Shown: positions 2,984 to 46,100 of the stretch, one piece after another | Layout of the letters: the number at the start of each line of letters is the position of its first letter | Position numbering within the stretch: position 1 is the stretch's first letter | Assembly (NCBI RefSeq): GCF_030013595.1 | Contig: NZ_CP122770.1 | Direction: 5' to 3' (one strand) | Origin: Escherichia coli | GTDB taxonomy: Bacteria; Pseudomonadota; Gammaproteobacteria; Enterobacterales; Enterobacteriaceae | DNA length: 64,000 bases | Program-made: the position numbers and the translations under genes | Notes under the pieces: model-generated | Databases searched by the model: none | What the model was told of the DNA's origin: nothing | The model's input: only the letters and a program-made list of their open reading frames with translations

Positions 2984-3100
2984 TTTCGGATATCCAAGAG
3001 GTACTCAATAGATGTTTTTTTACTCTATACCGGTCCTGCATGTCAACAGAATATGAAATACCGATAATATATCCATGAGATATCCGAAAGGGATTTAAAA
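2984..3100. promoter_or_regulatory. GGATAYC-type repeats upstream of the ParA-like operon (candidate type Ib centromere/operator)
   Basis: CGGATATCCAAG (2990), ATATATCCATGAGATATCCGAAAG (3068-3090); related copies at 2232-2275 (AAGATATCC, GGATACTATATGGATACC) and 1879 (GGTATCCGATAG). Confidence 0.35.
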
Positions 3101-3110
3101 AAGTCAGAGC

Positions 3111-3890
3111 TTATGGAATTCTTTTGAGCATAGACACCGCATCGGACTCAGGCATCGAAAACTGCACCCGGTGCCGTGCAGCCACATCCAGTGCAAACAC
3201 CTTCGTGTAGACCTCCGTTGAGCTGATGGACTTATGCCCCATCAGACTCTGCAGGACCTTCAGCGGTATACCGGCATACAGCATATGCATCGCATAGGAA
3301 TGGCGGAACGTATGTGGCGTGACCGGGACAGAGAACGTCACACCATCAGCGGCAGCGGCGGCAACCGCCTCCCCAATCCAGGTCCTGACCGTTCTGTCCG
3401 TCACTTCCCAGATCCGCGCTTTCTCTGTCCTGCCTGTTCGTTTATTACGCCGTTCCATGGGGATTTTCAGTGTGGCCACCATCGTCTGCAGCTGGCTGAC
3501 GTACCAGGCGTCGGAGAGCGGAACCAGCCGGTGAGTCTGCTGACCGGCGGGCATTCTTCCTGCCGTCCTGGCGGCTTTTTCGGTCCGCTGCTTCAGAGTG
3601 GCCAGCTGCACAAACGGATACGGAGGCGTGAGCGAAAAATCCCCCCGCGTCAGCGCCAGTGCTTCATTAATGCGCGCACCGGTGTTCCACAGTGTGGCCA
3701 GCAGCATCTTGCGGCGCAGATCCGGGACGTAATGGAGCAGGGCGCTCACTTCAGGGGCCAGCAGGTATTTTGGCAGTTCATCATGAACCATCGACATCTG
3801 GCGGAGTGCCAGCGCTGCCGGATAATCGATGGCAACAGGAAGCTGAGCGGCATCCCGGGCATGGTGGATCGGTGCCGGCAGGTGCTGCAT
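3111..3890 (-). CDS. resD: Tyrosine site-specific recombinase, ResD-like plasmid multimer resolvase (phage integrase family)
   Basis: C-terminal catalytic region HTFRHSYAMHML...LMGHKSISSTEVYT (R..HxxR..Y signature); likely start MQHLPAPIHH at 3890; the close resemblance to F-plasmid ResD is from memory. Confidence 0.75.
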   Translation of the reverse strand: MQHLPAPIHHARDAAQLPVAIDYPAALALRQMSMVHDELPKYLLAPEVSALLHYVPDLRRKMLLATLWNTGARINEALALTRGDFSLTPPYPFVQLATLKQRTEKAARTAGRMPAGQQTHRLVPLSDAWYVSQLQTMVATLKIPMERRNKRTGRTEKARIWEVTDRTVRTWIGEAVAAAAADGVTFSVPVTPHTFRHSYAMHMLYAGIPLKVLQSLMGHKSISSTEVYTKVFALDVAARHRVQFSMPESDAVSMLKRIP

Positions 3891-3891
3891 A

Positions 3892-4305
3892 TCAGTGTTC
3901 ACTCCACGGGGAAACGTCGGGCAGTTTTTCCACAACCCGGTACTTTCCCGGATAACGGAGCTGGTTACCGCCACGCGTCCAGACGGTGACAACAAAACCC
4001 CCGCCCTGGTTGTTTTCGGGGAGCAGGCGATCGCACTGCTCACTCAGCATGTGGATCACGAACGGCGCATCGCTGCCGTCTTCAAATACCAGTTCCAGCG
4101 CATCGCGGCCATCCAGCGTTCCCTTACTGATGATGACGTACTCAGCCCCCCGCATCTCCCTGAGTAAATGTTTTGCCGCATCCGGGACAAGCAGCCTGGC
4201 TGCGCCGGCATTCCAGCTTAGGTAGACATATCCGGCCTGCGCCTGTACAGACTGCCAGTAATCCGTTCCGGCGACAGCCTGACCTTCATTCTCAATAAAA
4301 AACAT
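3892..4305 (-). CDS. Hypothetical protein, translationally coupled upstream partner of the tyrosine recombinase
   Basis: 137-aa ORF starting MFFIENEGQAVAG with AAGGAG RBS; its stop (3892-3894) lies 1 nt before the recombinase ATG; no family recognised. Confidence 0.5.
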   Translation of the reverse strand: MFFIENEGQAVAGTDYWQSVQAQAGYVYLSWNAGAARLLVPDAAKHLLREMRGAEYVIISKGTLDGRDALELVFEDGSDAPFVIHMLSEQCDRLLPENNQGGGFVVTVWTRGGNQLRYPGKYRVVEKLPDVSPWSEH

Positions 4306-4388
4306 GGGTGACTCCTTTTTTCTTTTCCGGGCAGGGACGGTCATGCGATAACGTCATCCGTCATCACTGCCCTTACCGTCACGCCGTC

Positions 4389-4411
4389 TGATAACATCAT
4401 GCCGTTATCAT
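4389..4411. promoter_or_regulatory. Inverted repeat TGATAAC-N8-GTTATCA, candidate recombination (res/rfs-like) site or operator
   Basis: Perfect 7-bp arms with an 8-bp spacer in the intergenic region upstream of the recombinase operon; a further GATAAC copy follows at about 4421. Confidence 0.25.
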
Positions 4412-4746
4412 CATCACCATGATAACAAGCATCCATATAACCACGCCGTTAAATTACCGGAGAGCCGCTTCCGTCAGATCCGACTTTCCTGAATATCACA
4501 ACTTTCCGGAAGTGTATCACGCTGAGGAAATAATCATATCGCTGTTTTCCGCCCCTGCGCGGCGCATCACAGGTCAGGGAGATGACACAACATATAGTGT
4601 CATCAGCAGCTGAATCAGGCACCACATGTTGTGCTGACGGGAGGTGGCGTTGTGTGGGGGGAGTGGGAGATCCGTCTCCGCCGGAAACCGGATCTGCGCG
4701 GCGGGAAACGGGCAAACGATATGATAATTAAGCAACACACATAAAA

Positions 4747-4795
4747 TCATATCAGATATGATTTTCATCGTTAAAAATTAAACAATATCTGATAT
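4747..4795. promoter_or_regulatory. Pair of palindromic ATATCWGATAT operator-like sites upstream of the 4874 operon
   Basis: ATCATATCAGATATGAT (4747-4763) and AATATCTGATATT (4783-4795), with further TCAGATA half-sites up to 4865. Confidence 0.3.
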
Positions 4796-4873
4796 TATCA
4801 GAAATCAGGAGCACACAAATCATGCAGGATATGATTTTTACCTGTCAGAACATTATCAGATGGAGCGTGCAGG

Positions 4874-5131
4874 ATGGATCAGGAAATGACGTTTTCACTC
4901 AGCTATGAACAACTGACCCGGTTTGCGGAAAAACGCATCCGGGAATGCAATCTGGACAGCCAGGGCGCGATTTATCTCTGCGAGTCAGCCAAAGCCGGAG
5001 CCGTGCTGATCTTCTGGCATGAACTGGCCATAAATGGCTATGCCTCAATGAATGCCATAAAGAGACAGGAGCTCATTGACGCCGACTTTCAGCGCCTCAG
5101 AAACCTCATCTGGCCGGAGGATGACAGGTAA
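4874..5131 (+). CDS. Hypothetical 85-aa protein, first gene of a two-gene module
   Basis: ORF with GGAG RBS; its stop overlaps the start of the next gene (TAATGA at 5128-5133), suggesting translational coupling. Confidence 0.45.
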   Translation: MDQEMTFSLSYEQLTRFAEKRIRECNLDSQGAIYLCESAKAGAVLIFWHELAINGYASMNAIKRQELIDADFQRLRNLIWPEDDR

Positions 5132-5721
5132 TGACCCAGAGCCGCCGACCGTCGCCACTGCAGCGGAGAGTGCTGATTGTGCTGGCTGCCCTTGACGAAA
5201 AACGGCCGGGTCCCGTGCTGACGCGGGACCTGGAACGGGTGCTGGAGCGAAGCGGGGAAGCCCCGGTCTACGGGCCAAACCTGCGCGCCTCCTGCCGTCG
5301 TCTGGAGAATGCCGGCTGGCTGCGTACCCTGCGCGCTCCGAACCTGCAGCTGGCAGTGGAGCTGACGGACGCCGGCCGGGCCGTGGCACAGCCTCTGCTG
5401 CTGGCAGAACAGGACCGCCTCCGGGCAGAACAGCGTGCGGCAGAAGTCGTCGTACTGCCGCTGGTCCCGGCAGCAGGTCTGCCCGCAGACGGCACTTCTG
5501 CCACTGATCTGGCGGTGGAGCTGAACGGCATGACGTATCAGGCCTGCCGTGGGGATTTTGTGGTACGTCTCGACGGCAGCACCTGTCTGCAGTTATGGAA
5601 TAAAGAAGGCAGGGTGGTACGCCTGGAGGGCGATCCGCTGGAAGTGGCGCAGTGGCTGCAGGCCTGTCACGATGCCGGAATGGAGGTTCGTGTACAGGTT
5701 AATGAAAGCGTCACCCCGTAA
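5131..5721 (+). CDS. Hypothetical 196-aa protein with an N-terminal winged-helix-like DNA-binding region; markedly GC-rich
   Basis: N-terminal LQRRVLIVLAALDEKRPGPVLTRDLERVLERSG..RRLENAGWLRT resembles MarR/wHTH domains; GC content visibly higher than neighbouring genes. Confidence 0.5.
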   Translation: MTQSRRPSPLQRRVLIVLAALDEKRPGPVLTRDLERVLERSGEAPVYGPNLRASCRRLENAGWLRTLRAPNLQLAVELTDAGRAVAQPLLLAEQDRLRAEQRAAEVVVLPLVPAAGLPADGTSATDLAVELNGMTYQACRGDFVVRLDGSTCLQLWNKEGRVVRLEGDPLEVAQWLQACHDAGMEVRVQVNESVTP

Positions 5722-6048: not shown

Positions 6049-7620
6049 TTACTGAGAGGTCAGATCAACTTTCCAGGGCAACAGATCGCGTACCCGGTTT
6101 GCCGGCCAATCCTGGATATGCTCAATGACGTAACGCAGCCATTTTTCTGGTTCCACATTGTTCAGACGGCATGTGCCGATCAGCGAGTACAACACCGCCG
6201 CATGTTCGCCACCGCTGTCGGAACCCGCGAAGAGCCAGTTTTTCCGGCCTACGGCCACTCCCCGTAAGGCGTTCTCTGCGATGTTGTTGTCGATTTCCAC
6301 CCAGCCATTACTGCAGTACACGTTCAGGGCCTCCCACTGTTTCAGCAGGTATGCGAACGCTTTTGCCGTATCCGAGTGACGCGACAGTGTTTTCATCTGT
6401 TCCTGTATCCAGTCATACAGTGACTGCATCAGTGGAGCCGCTCTGGCTTTTCTTGCTGCCAGACGCTGTTCTGCTGAACATCCCCGGACTTCTGCCTCGA
6501 TGACATACAGTTCACCGATACGCTGCAGGGCTTCCGTGGTGATGTCGGTTGGCACTCTTGCATGCACATCGTGGATTTTTCTCCGGGCATGGGCCATACA
6601 CGCGGCTTCCGTTATTCTGCCGGATTCGTATAACGCCCGGTAACCACCGTAAGCATCTGCCTGAAGCACACCGCTGTAACCGGCCAGGTGATTCTGTGGA
6701 TGGATACCTTTCCGGTCCGGGCTGTACGCGAACCAGACCGCCGGGGGCATCTGTGAACCGGCGTTACGGTCATCACGGACATAGACCCACAGCCGGGCAG
6801 TTCTTGTTTTACCACTGCCCGGCTCCTGGACCGGAACGGGGATATCATCCGCATGGACTTTACCGGGCATCAGCACATACTGGCGCAGCACGTCATACAG
6901 CGGCTCCAGCAGTTCAGCAACGGCACCGGTCCAGCGCCCCAGCGTGGCGCGGCTCAGTTCCACGCCCTGACGAAGGTATATTTCTGACTGGCGGTATAAC
7001 GGCAGATGGTCTGCATACTTCCCGGTGACGATATGAGCCAGAAGCCCCGCTCCGGCATAACTGCGTGCAATGGGTTTTGAAGGTACTGGTGCCTGCACGA
7101 TATGGTCGCACCGGCAACAGGCCAGTTTCGGACGTTGTGTTTCGATAACCTTAAAAGCGCTGCTGATAAGCTCCAGTTGCTCTGACACATCACACCCCAG
7201 AGGACTGAGGTCACCACCACAGGCCGGGCAGCATTCCTCTTCCGGCCGGATGACCCGGGTTTCACGGGGAAGTGAGGCCGGTAACGGCTTACGGGCTGAA
7301 GACTGGCGCAGGGCGGATGGCAGTACCGGGTCATATTGCTCATCCAGCGTTTCCGCCATTTCTTCCTGAAGTGCGCTGATTCGCTCCTGGGCTTCCTGTA
7401 TCTGCCGTTCGGTTTTAGCGCGAAGTTTTTCTGAGCTTTTACCGAACTGCATGCGCTGCAGTTTCGCAACCAGCGCCTTCAGCCGGTTGATTTCGGAAGC
7501 ATAAGCCGCCACCCGCTGTGAGAGCAGGCGGTTGTATTTCGCCATCTGGCGGATGGTGTCCTGTTGCGTCTGCAACAGTGCCCGCAGGCGGGCATTCTCA
7601 TGAGCAAGTGAGGTGTCCAT
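6049..7620 (-). CDS. tnpC: IS66-family transposase TnpC
   Basis: 523-aa protein with the zinc-finger-like CCPACGG..CCRCDH segment and conserved central and C-terminal regions typical of IS66 TnpC. Confidence 0.9.
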
Positions 7621-7639
7621 ATCCTCACTTTACAACGGG

Positions 7640-7987
7640 TTATATGCGGATGCCAGCGCGTTCCGTTCGTTTCGGGTGCTTCCAGTCGATGCCTTCGAGA
7701 AGCATGGACAACTGAGCCGGAGTAAGGTGAACCTTTCCATCGCGGGTGACCGGCCAGACGAAGCGGCCCCGCTCCAGGCGTTTGGTGAAGAGGCACAGTC
7801 CGTCACTGTCAGCCCACAGCACTTTTATCTGGTCACCCCGGCGTCCGCGGAAGATGAACAGATGCCCGGAGAACGGGTCATCCTTCAGGACGTTCTGAAC
7901 TTTTGAGGCCAGGCCGTTAAAGCCATTTCGCATATCGGTGATACCGGCAACCAGCCAGATACGCGAACCGGCAGGGAGAGATATCAT
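7640..7987 (-). CDS. tnpB: IS66-family accessory protein TnpB
   Basis: 115-aa ORF (MISLPAGSRIWLVAGITDMRNGFNGLA...) in the conserved middle position of IS66 elements. Confidence 0.85.
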   Translation of the reverse strand: MISLPAGSRIWLVAGITDMRNGFNGLASKVQNVLKDDPFSGHLFIFRGRRGDQIKVLWADSDGLCLFTKRLERGRFVWPVTRDGKVHLTPAQLSMLLEGIDWKHPKRTERAGIRI

Positions 7988-8637
7988 CAGTGGCTGCTCC
8001 CTTTCATTTCGCGGATAAGTGTCTGTAATAACGCCGGTGTCAGTTCACCTTTCAGCCTGAGAGTTCCGGCCGGCAGAACCAGCTCGCAGCACAGACTGTC
8101 TGGCAGTGTATTTATCTGTTCAGGTATCTGCACTGGTGCCGGGATTTTATTATCCGGCTCCGGAGTTAACGTCACGGGAAGTAGCGATGTTTCATGTTCG
8201 CCGGGCGGTTGCAGGCCACCGTTACGCCAGAGATGCCGCCAGTTAAAGAGCAGGTTATCGTTAATTCCATTCTCTCGAGCTATTTGTGCGACACAAGCAC
8301 CGGGTAAAAGAGTTTGCTGAACCAGTCTCCATTTAAACTCCGGTGAAAATCGGTTCCGGCGGGGTTTCTCTGCTTTCACAGGCTGAGTCACGGTCGGGGC
8401 TGAAGGGTATCGCCCCGGGAAAAGAGCCCGGGCCAGTTGCCCGCAGGAATATTCACCGGAAAGAGGCCAGTCAGTGAATACCTGGTGAAATCGCCTCACC
8501 AGAGAAAAAATGGCGGTTTTGCTGACACCGGTCTGCGCAGAAATGCGCGGGTACGACAGTGACTCGTCAAATCTCAGCTGTAGCACACGCAGGATCAATT
8601 CCGGATTGTCTGCCAGTACCGCTTTTCGTGCATTCAT
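7987..8637 (-). CDS. tnpA: IS66-family accessory protein TnpA (orf1)
   Basis: 216-aa ORF first in the IS66 operon; its stop overlaps the tnpB start; HTH-like N-terminus. Confidence 0.7.
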   Translation of the reverse strand: MNARKAVLADNPELILRVLQLRFDESLSYPRISAQTGVSKTAIFSLVRRFHQVFTDWPLSGEYSCGQLARALFPGRYPSAPTVTQPVKAEKPRRNRFSPEFKWRLVQQTLLPGACVAQIARENGINDNLLFNWRHLWRNGGLQPPGEHETSLLPVTLTPEPDNKIPAPVQIPEQINTLPDSLCCELVLPAGTLRLKGELTPALLQTLIREMKGSSH

Positions 8638-25999: not shown

Positions 26000-27287
26000 T
26001 GAAGATATCAACCCGGTAGTGCTTCTCGCAGATCCTAAAGTAAATCATCGCGTGTGGGCTGCCTGTCTTAAATGGACTCCTGTCGTAAAAAAACAGCGCG
26101 TCCCCTCACATCATAAACACAAGTCTCATGTAAAACCCAGACGGCTTACCTCCCTGAAAGTGACTGTAGGCAGCAGAAATTCCCGTGGAAAGATCAGCCG
26201 CCTTACCGGCACAGGAATACTGACCAGGCCAGAACGCAATCATTATTTTTCCCTGGCACTGGCTTTCTGCTCATGGGTCAGAAATGGATACGGTGTCTTC
26301 CGGTACAGCGATAAGGAGCTCTTATTCCTTGCTTCCATTAATGGCCAGCCTGCCGTTATGGCTGACTTATCAGGAAATGATGCCGATGTTGCCCAAAAGG
26401 TCAGCCTTTTTCTGGCGATGAACGAAGAGCCCCCCGAAAAATGGCAGGTTGTATCGTCTCTGGAACATCCTGATAACTGGGAAAGTATTATTACCCGGTT
26501 ATCATCAGCAGACCTCCGCCGTTGCAAACTTACTGTCGGCAATCGCAGCAAATTCACACTGCCTGCCGTACTGTTTTTAGTAGCAGCCGGCGCAGGCACA
26601 GTATTCTGGATGACTCAGCCAGAGCCTGATGTCGGACCGACCGCCGAGGAGATAGCTGCACGGGCAAGATTACAGTTTAAAAAGCCCGAACCACCACCGG
26701 AGCTCCCGCATCCATGGGCGTCACAACCTGTAATCAGTGATTTTCTGAAAGCCTGCGCGGACCTTCGAAAACCATCACCGGTCGCGCTAGAAGGCTGGAA
26801 ACTTACCGGTGGAACATGTACTCCCGAGACATTCACACTGATTTACGAACGACAGCCAGGAGGAACTATTGAAGGCTTTCTGGCAAGAAGCAAAGAAATC
26901 TTTAATGTTATTCCTGACTTTAACCTTAAAGATGGTGCACGCCTGGCTTCTGTAACCCGGCTACTGCCTTCCCTGCCCCGCAGGGATGAGGCAGTCCCTG
27001 CCCCCTCAGAACAACTGATGCGGGTGTTCACGTGGTTTCAGAAAAAACAGTTAACGCCGGCCATTAATGAAATAGCCATACCGGAACCATTACCAGGTAA
27101 CGATGGTGAACCAGCCCCTGTTCAGAAATGGAAAGAATATCAGTTCAGTTTATCAACGCCTGTAAATCCTGATGAGTTGTTCCCTTTATTTCAGGATACC
27201 GGCGTTCGTCTGAGCAATATCCATTTTGAATTAAACGGCGGTACTTTCAGTTATTCCTCAGAAGGTCATATTTATGCGTCCAGGTAA
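25992..27287 (+). CDS. pilO: PilO, thin-pilus biogenesis protein
   Basis: 431-aa ORF in conserved position, overlapping the pilN stop. Confidence 0.8.
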   Translation: MADEDINPVVLLADPKVNHRVWAACLKWTPVVKKQRVPSHHKHKSHVKPRRLTSLKVTVGSRNSRGKISRLTGTGILTRPERNHYFSLALAFCSWVRNGYGVFRYSDKELLFLASINGQPAVMADLSGNDADVAQKVSLFLAMNEEPPEKWQVVSSLEHPDNWESIITRLSSADLRRCKLTVGNRSKFTLPAVLFLVAAGAGTVFWMTQPEPDVGPTAEEIAARARLQFKKPEPPPELPHPWASQPVISDFLKACADLRKPSPVALEGWKLTGGTCTPETFTLIYERQPGGTIEGFLARSKEIFNVIPDFNLKDGARLASVTRLLPSLPRRDEAVPAPSEQLMRVFTWFQKKQLTPAINEIAIPEPLPGNDGEPAPVQKWKEYQFSLSTPVNPDELFPLFQDTGVRLSNIHFELNGGTFSYSSEGHIYASR

Positions 27288-43103: not shown

Positions 43104-46100
43104 ATGCCGTCTGTATCCCGCTACCGCACCTGGCTTGCCGTGCCTGCAGATGAAATAGAAGATCTCAAAAAAGCACATCCCCCGATGAACGGGCACACGC
43201 CCGTCATCTGGGACAAGGAGCACAAACTCTGGTTCGCCCGCCCGGGGGCGGACCTGTCCAGGCTGGACCGCTGGCTGCCCCGGCCACAGGACGTCTCCAT
43301 GAACGGCAGTGATCCGGTCACCGAGTTTGCCCAGGTTCTGGAGAATGCCGGACTGGTTCTGAAAGAACTGCCGGTCATGGACGGGAAAATCCACCGTGTC
43401 CCGACCGCCGATGACAAAAAAGGACAAAAAAGTGGCGCATATCGCGGATTCCTGGACGGCAGACCTGCCGGCTGGTACAGGGATTATCGCAGCGCGGATA
43501 ATTCGCCGATCACCTGGACCTTCTCCGGCGGAGAACAGACAGATCCCCGCGCAAGACTCCACCTGAAAGCGCATTCAATGCAACGCAGGGAGGACGCGGA
43601 GCGGGAACTGAAAGCACAGTACAACCGACAGGCCGCGTATGCCCGCCGCTATATCAACAAATGGCCGCAGGCCACAGCACATGAATACCTGACCCGGAAA
43701 GGCATTCAGGCTGCACCGGGGGTGCGGGTAAACAACAAAAATGAACTGGTTATTCCCTTCAGTAACCGTAACGGCGCGATACGCTCTTACCAGCGTATTC
43801 CGGTCACCGGGGGGAAAGATGCCCGCATCCTGATAGATTCGGAGAAAACCGGTAACTGGTTTGCGCTGGGCACACCGCGCAACGGTCAGCCGGTACTGTT
43901 TGCCGAGGGCTATGCCACTGCGGCCTCCCTGCACGAAGCCACGGGCCTTCCGGTACTGATGACGGTGGATGGAGGCAACATGATTGCCGTTGCCGAAAAT
44001 GCCCGGCAAAAGTGGACGCAAAGCCCCTTTATCTTCTGTGCCGACAACGATCATGCAATCCGGGTTAACAAAGGTATCGTCAGTGCAACAAAAGCCGCAG
44101 AACTGACAGGAGGATCGGTCATCTTTCCTGCGTTCACCGATGCCGAAAAAGCGCAGGGGCTGACCGATTTCAATGACCTGGACGCAAGCCGGGGACGGGC
44201 CGCTTTTCAGCATGTCATCAACGCCCAGTTAGAACACATCGGGGTTTCCACCCCCAACAGTAACACCCCGGAAATGCGCGAGGCACTGGTGATAGGCAAC
44301 CTCGTTTTTACACCGGTCCACAGTGAGGAAAAAACCATGACTCCGACAGAATATCCTGAAACATCACCCGATACAGGGCACAGCCATGACCAGGGACCTT
44401 CTCTGCCGTCCGCCACACAGCAGGAACAACCAGCTGCTTCCAGCAGTAACATTGCTGATGAAACACAGTCATTTACCAGTCACGCCACTGAAAATAACGG
44501 CAAAGATGAGCGGCACGCTGATAACGTTCAGGCGCAAACGGAAAGCTCTGTAGTTCAGGACTCCCCTGCAGAATCACCGGCGTCCCCGGAAAGTACAACG
44601 GCGTCTGCCCCTGATGAACCCGCTCATCCGGCGGAACCTCCGGAAAAAGTTGTCTCGGTGGCCACAGATAAAGACTGGCGTGAATTTGAAGCTGAACTGT
44701 CACAACCGGAAAAAAACGAGTCACAACAGGAATCCGGCACTTCACCTGAAATACCGGCCCCTGCTGCCACCACCGCATCCCCTGAAGACAGTCCCTCATC
44801 TGAAACCATGAATGAATCAGCCGAGCCATCACCTTCCCCTGATGCAGTCAAAGAGGAAATGACCGTGATGACGGAACCTGATGACAAACAAAGCACCGGA
44901 ATATCCCCGGATACTCCCCGGGAAGAGGCGGTCAACCATGTAACTGAAGACATTCCCCTTCAGCCAGAGCCGTTCCTTCCTGAGTCAGATGGCCCCGAAG
45001 AATACGAAAACTACAGCGCATATCAGGAGCTGATGAACAATGAAAATCCTGAGCATCTGCAGGAAAACAGTGATATGCCGTCGCAACCGGACACAGGCCA
45101 CGTTCAGGCTGATGAGTCAGAACTTCAGGCCACAACAGATACAGTAGAACCGGCTGTCCGGGATGCCCCCACTCCACAGCAACCTGTTCAGAGCACATCA
45201 TCTTCTGATAATACTTCATCGTTTCTCGACAAAGCGCGTGGCTTTTTTACGCGTAAAAAAACGGATTCACAGGCGCATGAGAACAGTGATCCCACACCCT
45301 CACCGGAAACCACGACGACCACACCGGCACCTGACAGTATTGTCTACGCCCCGGAACGCCCTGATGCACCGATATCGCTCAATCTGGACGAAATCATTAA
45401 ATCGCTGGAAGGTGAAGAACGAGCAGACAGAACCGTCCTGTACAAACTGGATGGCAAACCTGCCTTCATTGACCGGGTAAACCGGCTGGAAATGGTCAAC
45501 GGTGCCAGCAATGACGATCGCAGTGTTCTGGCTGCACTTGCTGTGGCCACTGATTTTTATGGTGGTGTCATTGAGCTGACGGGCAGTGATGCCTTTAAGC
45601 AAAAAGCGATGCAGTTGATCATCGAGCACAACATCAAAGTGCGCATGAAATTCCCGGATCAGCGAGCGGCGCTCGAAAAATTACGCAAGGAAATGGCTGT
45701 CGGTAAAGATACTGTTGTCACCCATAAGCCAACACCGGAACTTAACCGGAATACCCCTGAACAACCAGCAGTCCCAGACCCTGTTCAGGAAAAAGAAGCC
45801 ACACAATCCCCGGCGTCCCCAGTAGCCCCTGAAGCATCAACCGTCAGCACCGTCCCTGCATCATCACCGGCTGAACCTGGCAAAACGGCAGATGCGGCAC
45901 AAGGTGAAGAACCACCAGGAAAACTTCGCCCGGGAGAGAGCGTGACTGCCGTACTGCACAATTTTGGTCGTGCTGAATATGCACCCGGCAAAGGAGAGAG
46001 TTTCTTTGTTGAGCTTAAAAACCGCAGTGGCAGCAAACTCTACTGGGGGGAACAACTGGAAAGTCTGGTCAAAAACCATCAGAAAGGTGACGTGGTGACA

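Follow-up and report, generated by a model that had tools for sequence, protein, structure and literature searches.

A tyrosine recombinase gene that follows an orphan ORF almost without a gap raises two questions, namely at which site the recombinase acts and whether the protein encoded in front of it takes part in recombination. The locus was analysed within a 64-kb stretch of DNA (the window), and its features are collected in Table 1. Judged from its sequence, the locus represents a known type of module, the ResD/rfsF multimer-resolution system, carried here by an IncI-type conjugative plasmid. The combined reading, with the rfsF core at 4668–4695, YedA as a passenger and the TGATAAC repeat as an operator or 5′-leader element, is probable. 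The module is ordinary and already known; the orphan family of YedA and the cargo slot in which its gene lies are modestly interesting.

Table 1. Features of the resD locus and their positions in the window.
Feature	Position	Strand	Basis or remark
resD, tyrosine recombinase of 259 aa, multimer resolvase	3111..3890	-	PF00589 match, identity to F ResD
yedA, 137-aa ORF (as named in IncI1 records), begins MFFIENEGQAVAG	3892..4305	-	sequence
Shine-Dalgarno AAGGAG of yedA, strong, 6 nt before ATG	4312..4317	-	read from sequence
Swap unit relative to ccdAB-type modules: distal leader, yedA, first 16 resD codons	3844..4468	-	BLAST against L024, F and pMAR2
Inverted repeat TGATAAC-N8-GTTATCA	4389..4410	.	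probable operator or leader element, not crossover site
Conserved non-coding leader, candidate accessory sequences	4420..4667	-	15 aligned leaders, 47 modules
Leader motifs: TACACTTCCGGAAA (4503-4516), TCGGATC (4477-4483), GGTAATTTA, CAGCTG, ATATGTTGTGT	within 4420..4667	-	
Perfect inverted repeat GATGACAC-N8-GTGTCATC	4581..4604	.	in conserved leader; imperfect in F
rfsF core, inferred crossover site AGATCCGTCT-CCGCCGGA-AACCGGATCT	4668..4695	.	conservation, breakpoints, published boundaries

ResD matched Pfam PF00589 with 67.1 bits (cut-off 27.1) over residues 42–231. It is 94% identical to ResD of the F plasmid over 251 of its 259 residues (E = 9e-176), and the first ~16 residues are different. 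The first-pass annotation had called the recombinase ResD-like, which is borne out by this identity, and the locus is therefore assigned to the known ResD/rfsF system. The motifs TGARINE, HTFRHS, GH and EVYTKV align with the catalytic Arg (box I), the HxxR (box II), the His/Trp and the nucleophilic Tyr of XerD/XerA, respectively. Most members of the tyrosine recombinase superfamily contain an N-terminal core-binding (SAM-like) domain. This domain is missing from ResD, which has ~36 residues before the catalytic domain in the alignment to XerD/XerA (residue 37–39 aligns to XerD 107 and XerA 99). F ResD also has no core-binding domain, so its absence is no argument against membership in the ResD group. 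ResD scored below the NCBIfam equivalog cut-offs of XerD (83.9 versus 329.6 bits) and XerC (76.7 versus 335.15 bits), and below that of the integron-integrase model integrase_gron (60 versus 265 bits).

Plasmid typing assigned the locus to IncI-gamma/K1 or IncI1. The region is 98–99% identical to R64 (98.7% by BLAST), and the pair of resD and yedA is annotated alike by PGAP in more than 1000 plasmids. The rfsF-resD module has been described in R64 and other IncI1 plasmids (PMC8004404, PMC9412624). As a ResD/rfsF module the locus is nothing new, since its genes and site already occur, under the same names, in R64 and in >1000 sequenced plasmids.

The rfsF site was placed by comparison of modules and by boundary coordinates given in later papers. 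Its core is a 28-bp imperfect palindrome, AGATCCG-N14-CGGATCT, with 10-bp imperfect inverted arms and an 8-bp spacer. All 15 aligned leaders have the same 7-bp outer arms, which match exactly in 33 of 47 related modules, and the spacer is variable. The core lies at a constant ~179 bp from TACACTTCCGGAAA and is unique in the window; no second core-like site was found in the 64 kb even when 2 mismatches were allowed. In five independent plasmid pairs the homology switches inside the core, and all five clear breakpoints map to 4668–4695, about 260–300 bp upstream of the TGATAAC repeat. In three of these pairs (L017/L020, L034/L041 and R64/F), identity is 100% from the left up to and including the core and then falls to 56–79%, and the other two (L033/window and L019/L030) are unrelated left of the core and 95–96% identical right of it. 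The published rfsF boundaries at nt 43,620 of R64 (PMC8004404) and nt 45,922 of F (PMC4398462) both map exactly to position 4695, the outer end of the core. The comparative breakpoints give indirect evidence that recombination occurs at 4668–4695, which we infer to be the crossover site. For F, "two rfsF sites" are mentioned in one paper (PMC4398462), whereas the present analysis found a single full palindrome together with a third CGGATC half-site. The interval of the first-pass annotation (3111–4435) was too short and left the recombination site outside.

Two further palindromes were considered as the main core and rejected. The repeat GATGACAC-N8-GTGTCATC has no perfect counterpart in F, and the clean pairwise breakpoints, all at 4668–4695, speak against both this repeat and the GCACAACATGTGGTGC palindrome. 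In L016, a junction with foreign DNA is located inside the spacer of the former repeat. Genes such as pif and vapBC and those of the Abi and TrlF types are frequent neighbours of rfsF.

The motifs of the conserved leader show little or no variation across the 15 aligned leaders and 47 modules, and >5000 plasmid records contain a conserved copy of the leader region. About 200 bp of conserved leader and the 28-bp palindrome are common to the window and F. The ~250-bp leader most likely provides accessory sequence and/or regulatory sites. Plasmid dimers would be resolved through ResD-mediated recombination between two rfsF copies at the core.

The arrangement of the two genes points to coupled expression. 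The yedA coding sequence runs from 4305 to 3895 on the minus strand and is followed by the stop codon TGA (3894–3892), one A (3891) and the resD ATG (3890–3888), in agreement with the earlier report that resD starts 1 nt past the stop of the 137-aa ORF. The only Shine-Dalgarno sequence of resD is a GGAG 11 nt upstream, within yedA. This site inside yedA is compatible with translational coupling, as had been supposed when the two genes were described as probably co-translated. Among the 11 modules with annotated gene coordinates, 10 showed tight coupling of the preceding gene to resD, whichever gene was upstream (gaps or overlaps of 0, 0, 0, -4, -8, +4, +2, -11, -11 and +1 nt). An operon precedent is found in pSLT, where ccdAB-PSLT029-030-rsdB-032 forms a single transcript (PMC5065971). 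resD would stand at the end of an operon transcribed from the leader and be translationally coupled to whichever gene precedes it (yedA in the present plasmid, ccdAB in F). In F (NC_002483), ccdA-ccdB directly precede resD; they are missing here, as had been stated. All four sequence statements of the first-pass annotation (the gene pair with its 1-nt spacing, the signs of co-translation, the repeat and the absence of ccdAB) were therefore confirmed. Its interpretation held for a true ResD, for tight coupling and for an ORF in the place of F's ccdAB, but not for a crossover site at 4389–4410.

The stretch that separates rfsF from resD is hypervariable: the 36 modules compared hold 31 unrelated ORF clusters there. 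A Pfam scan of ten representative proteins from other slot cassettes gave no significant match. L024, which has the same IncI-gamma backbone, carries ccdAB in the exact slot of yedA. The distal leader, the passenger gene or genes and the first ~16 codons of resD are exchanged between plasmids as a unit. Comparison of plasmids places the left boundary of larger exchanges at the rfsF core and their right boundary inside resD. The exchanges end in resD and at or within the leader, which suggests homologous recombination plus rfsF crossover. On this basis a wider proposal can be made tentatively. The slot may be a dedicated cargo site of Enterobacterales plasmids that holds at least 31 unrelated, mostly orphan clusters, driven by the leader, coupled to resD and swapped as units of leader, cassette and 5′ resD by rfsF crossover and homologous recombination in resD. 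YedA would then be one cargo, from a family shared with phages (often after a PAPS-reductase/ParB-nuclease pair), and would serve establishment or counter-defence rather than recombination.

YedA belongs to a large orphan family of about 1,100 clusters. No significant match was found in Pfam, NCBIfam, PHROGs, PADLOC or a profile search of PDB sequences. The structure model is confident and beta-rich, with no structural match in the libraries searched and no recognisable DNA-binding fold. After protein search and structure prediction without a family or structural match, the earlier description of an ORF without known function still stands. Homologues without recombinase were found in a Thiocystis prophage, a Pantoea IncFII-like plasmid, Salmonella and 32 IMG/VR contigs, and most YedA relatives have no recombinase nearby. 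Since phages and plasmids that have no recombinase also carry YedA, it is probably a cargo or passenger and not a partner of ResD. It would use the operon for expression and would not act as a recombination factor. A role in mobile-element establishment or in competition with host defences is our guess. In two non-plasmid contexts, the genes downstream of yedA are unrelated to each other, so no conserved downstream partner is indicated.

YedA could be a more specific kind of cargo that substitutes for CcdAB, either as a plasmid-stabilising (addiction-type) function or as a defence or anti-defence function, in a slot that favours such functions. We consider this somewhat unlikely. yedA does occupy the exact position of ccdAB in a backbone that is otherwise identical. 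A distant YedA homologue, P0264, is fused to a C-terminal ArdB/KlcA-type antirestriction domain and adjoined by another such protein, although in YedA itself the Antirestrict domain (ArdB/KlcA, PF03230) was not found with Pfam. Another homologue has an AcrVA2-like gene as its neighbour, a further one is encoded near a plasmid ssb, and a trio of PAPS-reductase/DUF3440, ParB_N and YedA is recurrent in phages. The pif, vapBC, Abi and TrlF-type genes beside rfsF fit this possibility as well. However, the evidence from association is thin (single fusions), yedA is a single gene with no antitoxin-like partner, and YedA has no match in PADLOC or any family library. Homology to CcdA/CcdB was not detected either, as no Pfam or NCBIfam match was obtained and YedA formed a separate cluster in the all-against-all BLAST of slot ORFs.

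A partnership of YedA with ResD was implied by the first-pass annotation and is unlikely. YedA would be either an accessory DNA-binding factor that makes up for the missing core-binding domain of ResD, or an autoregulator that acts on the TGATAAC array and sets the level of resD, as CcdAB in the F/pSLT operons. The 1-nt stop-start coupling would fix the stoichiometry of the two proteins, the array of half-sites is confined to the yedA-type leader, and the first genes of the pSLT operon regulate rsdB (PMC5065971). yedA is also located inside resD operons of Cronobacter and Leclercia plasmids (69–77% identity), so some functional link between YedA and ResD is possible. In contrast, F ResD functions in the ccdAB context without YedA, and the same slot holds 31 unrelated families. 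The beta-rich fold does not look like that of a DNA-binding protein, and a natural yedA allele has an in-frame deletion of 11 residues that removes the invariant, most conserved motif ELVFEDGSDAP. This allele, together with the relatives that mostly have no recombinase nearby, weakens the partner idea and favours YedA as a passenger.

The TGATAAC repeat is a perfect match and unique in the window. It lies 84 bp before the yedA ATG, one base off the position implied by the earlier statement of about 80 bp upstream of the operon. An extra TGATAAC-type half-site is present at 4420–4426 and GATAAC at 4347–4352, and the 568-bp intergenic region contains 10 perfect 7-mer inverted pairs versus 0.33 in shuffles. 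The recurrence of half-sites and the excess of inverted pairs indicate that the repeat is beyond chance. It sits in the cassette-specific, gene-proximal part of the leader (segment 3844–4468), and other cassette types have only TGAT...ATCA at the homologous position. Most likely the repeat is regulatory, an operator or 5′-leader element controlling yedA-resD expression. No sigma-70-like promoter was found near it by a consensus scan, in which the minus-strand hits were only at 4774–4746 and 4848–4819, and with no promoter adjoining the repeat the operator reading is a guess. By hand inspection, the conserved TATATG and TATTATC boxes had no convincing -35 element.

The three alternating half-sites (4420–4426, 4404–4410 and 4389–4395) might also form mutually exclusive RNA hairpins in the 5′ leader of yedA-resD and modulate transcription or translation, which seems very unlikely. 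The second half-site can pair with the first or the third, the minimum-free-energy fold takes the first and second, and the leader RNA folds mildly better than shuffles (z = -2.2). However, this z-score is modest, no U-run follows either hairpin, and no Rfam match was found in 3000–5200. Across cassette types the outer TGAT/ATCA recurs and the three inner pairs are confined to the yedA type, so the arms show no clear compensatory pattern. That the repeat at 4389–4410 is the ResD crossover site, as first annotated, is highly improbable: with 7-bp arms around an 8-bp spacer it has the geometry expected of a tyrosine-recombinase core, and it is perfect, unique, surrounded by clustered half-sites and close to the recombinase operon, but it is absent from the ccdAB-type modules F, pMAR2 and L024 despite their 94–96% identical ResD, its arms are not conserved in other ResD modules, and no breakpoints fall on it, whereas five clear ones lie in the 4668–4695 core and the published rfsF boundaries map to its end.

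The precise rfsF core is useful for designing resolution assays and for reading breakpoints in IncI/IncF mosaics; a test fragment covering 4380–4440 would probably fail to resolve. What the slot ahead of resD encodes differs greatly between plasmids and consists of uncharacterised proteins, of which YedA is the most widespread example. Should these passengers serve stability or counter-defence, the slot would offer a compact region in which to look for further functions of this kind.

The closest known system is ResD/rfsF of F, which shares the 94% identical recombinase, the conserved non-coding region of ~200 bp with the 28-bp palindrome, and resD as the last, tightly coupled gene of the operon. 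F differs in having ccdAB and the oriV1/ccd promoter region where the window has yedA and its own distal leader with the TGATAAC repeat. The 8-bp spacer of the core is CCGCCGGA (plus strand) in the window and ACCCCAAG in F (operon strand, which corresponds to the window minus strand), and because of this difference the two sites are probably not efficient partners. The Rsd/RsdB-crs system of the Salmonella virulence plasmids pSDL2 and pSLT likewise has a ResD-family resolvase in a multi-gene operon with uncharacterised genes upstream (PMC5065971). In pSLT, ccdAB is kept at the head of the operon and further genes are present. The Cronobacter and Leclercia relatives of the window locus have such a pSLT-like multi-gene layout, with yedA as one member. 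ColE1 cer/XerCD and related plasmid resolution sites resemble the present site, whose ~28-bp core is flanked on a single side by about 250 bp of conserved sequence, and this one-sided accessory architecture would suit a topological filter favouring resolution. The recombinase of the window is plasmid-encoded, however, and is not a Xer protein (77–84 bits versus 330–335 for the XerC/XerD NCBIfam models). As in integrons, a tyrosine recombinase gene lies beside hypervariable, promoterless-looking orphan genes. Unlike in integrons, there are no attC-like second sites in the window, and the cassettes are located between the site and the recombinase gene, where they would be co-transcribed with resD.

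The region 3000–4900 was matched by more than 5000 plasmid records, and among the matches listed the full-length ones are IncI-type plasmids of E. coli, Shigella and Salmonella with 98.4–98.7% identity. The top match was typed as IncI-gamma/K1 and has the neighbours parA, parM/stbB, umuDC and repA in common with the window. In R64 (IncI1) the same two genes are adjacent, with 98.7% identity from 4675 to 2300, and one IncI1 record gives the 137-aa gene the name yedA. The recombinase scored 67.1 bits against Pfam Phage_integrase (cut-off 27.1) and is 94% identical to F-plasmid ResD over 251 residues. Its box I arginine, HxxR, His and Tyr regions line up with XerD and XerA, and it scored far under the cut-offs of the Xer and integron-integrase models. 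Only about 36 residues of ResD (window 3114–3890) lie ahead of its catalytic domain, as in F ResD, so that the N-terminal core-binding domain seen in recombinases of the XerD/Cre type is missing. The locus is real but already known, being the ResD/rfsF module of IncI plasmids, in which yedA is annotated as a hypothetical gene.

The first-pass annotation placed the recombinase start 1 nt after the stop of a 137-aa ORF, and the coordinates agree. AAGGAG is a strong Shine-Dalgarno sequence 6 nt ahead of the ATG of the 137-aa ORF. For resD, the only candidate ribosome site is GGAG, 11 nt upstream and within the preceding gene, which makes translational coupling of resD to yedA plausible. The last gene before resD nearly always overlaps it or leaves a gap of at most 4 nt; the annotated distances in 10 of 11 modules (rfsF leader, passenger genes and resD) were +1, 0, 0, 0, -4, -8, +4, +2, -11 and -11 nt. 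Because the passengers differ among these modules, the tight coupling is to be ascribed to resD and not to yedA.

The first-pass annotation also proposed an inverted repeat about 80 bp upstream of the operon, TGATAAC-N8-GTTATCA, as the crossover site. The repeat exists at 4389–4410, 84 bp upstream of the yedA ATG, and occurs only once in the window. Chance does not explain it: its half-site is found again at 4420 and GATAAC at 4347, and 10 perfect 7-mer inverted pairs were counted in the 568-bp intergenic region, versus 0.33 in shuffles. TGATAAC and GTTATCA face each other elsewhere in the window only at 26471–26504, with 20-bp spacing, probably by chance in apparent coding sequence. The comparison with L024, a locus in which ccdAB is flanked on either side by the same IncI-gamma backbone, is decisive at the sequence level against the repeat as the crossover site: the segment that differs, 3844–4468, takes in the first 16 codons of resD, yedA and the distal leader, in which the repeat lies. 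The ResD proteins of F, pMAR2 and L024 are 94–96% identical to that of the window, yet these plasmids do not have the repeat, and such similar recombinases must use a site common to all four. The gene pair and the F comparison of the first-pass annotation were right, but its crossover site was wrong by about 260–300 bp, and the suggested resolution assay on 4380–4440 would most likely come out negative.

Other cassette types have only TGAT...ATCA at the homologous position, so the repeat is a feature of the yedA-type leader. Its three alternating half-sites have the look of either an operator array or alternative hairpins in the leader. The RNA fold of the leader had only a small advantage over shuffles (z = -2.2), Rfam gave no match for the leader, and the promoter scan found no sigma-70-like site beside the repeat. 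With modest confidence, the repeat is most likely a putative regulatory element of the yedA-resD operon.

A three-way alignment revealed that the window, R64 and F share about 200 bp of non-coding sequence (window ~4470–4675). On its pif side F and R64 are identical, and on its resD side F departs from the IncI plasmids. Modules were gathered from the plasmid collection and from a scan of one genome per species for TACACTTCCGGAAA-N17-21-TCGGATC, which returned 34 loci, nearly all labelled Enterobacterales, with 3 in metagenome bins under other labels. In total there were 47 modules; 36 of them are followed 0.6–2.7 kb downstream by a ResD homologue (more than 200 aligned residues; 78–100% amino-acid identity), and in 2 further modules the contig end cuts off the resD region. 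AGATCCG-N14-CGGATCT is exact in 33 of the 47, about 179 bp upstream of the TACACTTCCGGAAA motif, and most of the remaining modules have 1–2 mismatches in its arms. No second site of this type was found in the 64-kb window with up to 2 mismatches allowed.

This site is a 28-bp palindrome whose arms are conserved and whose spacer is variable, with at least 12 versions among plasmids. Three pairs (compared loci L017/L020 and L034/L041, and R64/F) show 100% identity on the left through the palindrome and then 56–79%, and two pairs (L033/window and L019/L030) reach 95–96% identity on the right after an unrelated left side; in all 5 the homology switches within the palindrome. The 'rfsF to yfcA' segment of R64 begins at nt 43,620 (PMC8004404), and the F RepFIA block beginning with rfsF starts at nt 45,922 (PMC4398462). 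Transferred to the window by locus offsets and BLAST coordinates, both fall exactly on 4695, where the palindrome has its outer end. From the conserved arms, the internal homology switches and the two published boundaries, we conclude at the sequence level that this palindrome is the rfsF core.

Features of the rfsF-resD region in window coordinates
Feature	Position	Remark
resD, 259-aa ORF	ATG from 3890, end 3111	minus strand; one base after yedA TGA
yedA, 137-aa ORF (MFFIENEGQAVAG...)	ATG at 4305, TGA 3894–3892	minus strand
third TCGGATC	4477–4483	leader motif
TACACTTCCGGAAA	4503–4516	leader motif
CACAAnATGT	core to ~4420	leader motif
CAGCTG	core to ~4420	leader motif
ATATGTTGTGT	core to ~4420	leader motif
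GGTAATTTA	core to ~4420	leader motif
TGCTTATTATC	core to ~4420	leader motif
GATGACAC-N8-GTGTCATC	4581–4604	perfect inverted repeat within conserved leader
rfsF core, AGATCCGTCT-CCGCCGGA-AACCGGATCT	4668–4695	28-bp imperfect palindrome, 10-bp arms; outside first-pass interval 3111–4435
AAAATCATATC/GATATGATTTT and related copy	4743–4765 and 4817–4838	11-bp perfect palindrome; divergent promoter-like region, rfsF to plus-strand ORFs
Hypothetical ORFs, 85 aa and 196 aa	4874–5131 and 5131–5721	plus strand

The leader motifs between the core and ~4420 are invariant or nearly so across genera. Cer-type sites consist of a core with one-sided accessory sequences, and by analogy the leader motifs are candidate accessory or regulatory sites. 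The F plasmid does not have the perfect GATGACAC-N8-GTGTCATC repeat. In plasmid NZ_CP109602 (L016, 2990–3010), a junction with DNA downstream of aph(6)-Id (strB) lies inside the 8-bp spacer of such a repeat, which could be due to chance or to illegitimate recombination. Beyond rfsF, as seen from resD, the AAAATCATATC/GATATGATTTT palindrome and its copy look like putative operator sites for the ORFs at 4874–5721, and the sole match of the 196-aa ORF is a PHROG of unknown function. The flank opposite resD is variable DNA that often bears defence- or addiction-type genes (L002, L003, L017–L020); genes found there are pifA/pifC (F, R64), vapBC with an AAA ATPase and a UvrD helicase, an Abi protein and a TrlF-like ATPase. 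At 6049–8637 the minus strand has three ORFs in a row (523, 115 and 216 aa) whose stops and starts overlap or abut; they presumably resemble an IS66-family insertion sequence (tnpC, tnpB, tnpA).

Between the leader and resD, 31 unrelated ORF clusters were found in 36 modules, in combinations of 1–4 genes (ORFs of at least 45 aa on the operon strand, uncurated, some short ones possibly spurious). The occupants include ccdAB, yedA and many orphans, and a Pfam scan of 10 representative slot proteins gave no significant match. Gene content differs widely among L001–L003, L008–L010, L017–L024 and L027–L060. The N-terminal 7–17 residues of ResD change with the cassette. By gene content, the rfsF-resD interval is best described as a hypervariable cargo slot.

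YedA is a real, conserved protein. It was annotated as an ORF of unknown function, and no match was found in Pfam, NCBIfam, PHROGs, PADLOC or PDB sequences. There are 275 close homologues, the family comprises 1126 clusters (50% identity, E ≤ 0.001), and 15 residues are invariant in an alignment of 51 sequences. The proposed structure prediction, run with AlphaFold, gave a mainly beta model with a mean pLDDT of 90.4. YedA belongs to a large orphan family of mobile elements that has no structural match. At 77% identity in Cronobacter and 69% in Leclercia plasmids, yedA lies inside a longer resD operon, separated from the recombinase by another gene of ~280 aa. The other contexts inspected were a Pantoea IncFII-like plasmid with two unrelated integrase genes ~2 kb off on the other strand, a Salmonella contig with an adjacent AcrVA2-like gene, a metagenomic contig with ssb near, a Thiocystis prophage and 32 IMG/VR contigs, and in none of them does a ResD-like recombinase gene adjoin yedA, which counts against a dedicated YedA-ResD role. 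PAPS-reductase/DUF3440 and ParB_N genes lie directly upstream of yedA in 10 contexts (9 IMG/VR contigs and the Thiocystis prophage), and the three form a recurring, conserved phage/prophage trio (L004, L062, L072, L075, L082–L084, L088, L091). The compared protein P0264 (L025, 339–1241) is a fusion of a YedA-like domain with an ArdB/KlcA-type antirestriction domain (PF03230), and the latter is also encoded by the next gene; another homologue is fused to DUF4262. A natural allele (P0003, P0005; L058; two 90%-identity clusters of 44 and 48 sequences) has lost the invariant ELVFEDGSDAP by an in-frame 11-residue deletion with the resD junction intact, which suggests that the activity of YedA can be lost whereas the frame into resD is maintained.

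The remaining interest is secondary and concerns the YedA orphan family and the cargo slot. Operons of the tightly coupled kind have an experimentally shown instance in the six-gene ccdAB...rsdB operon of pSLT (PMC5065971). In the F plasmid, ccdA and ccdB precede resD, as the first-pass annotation stated, and they do so with zero gap, whereas in the window this position is taken by yedA.
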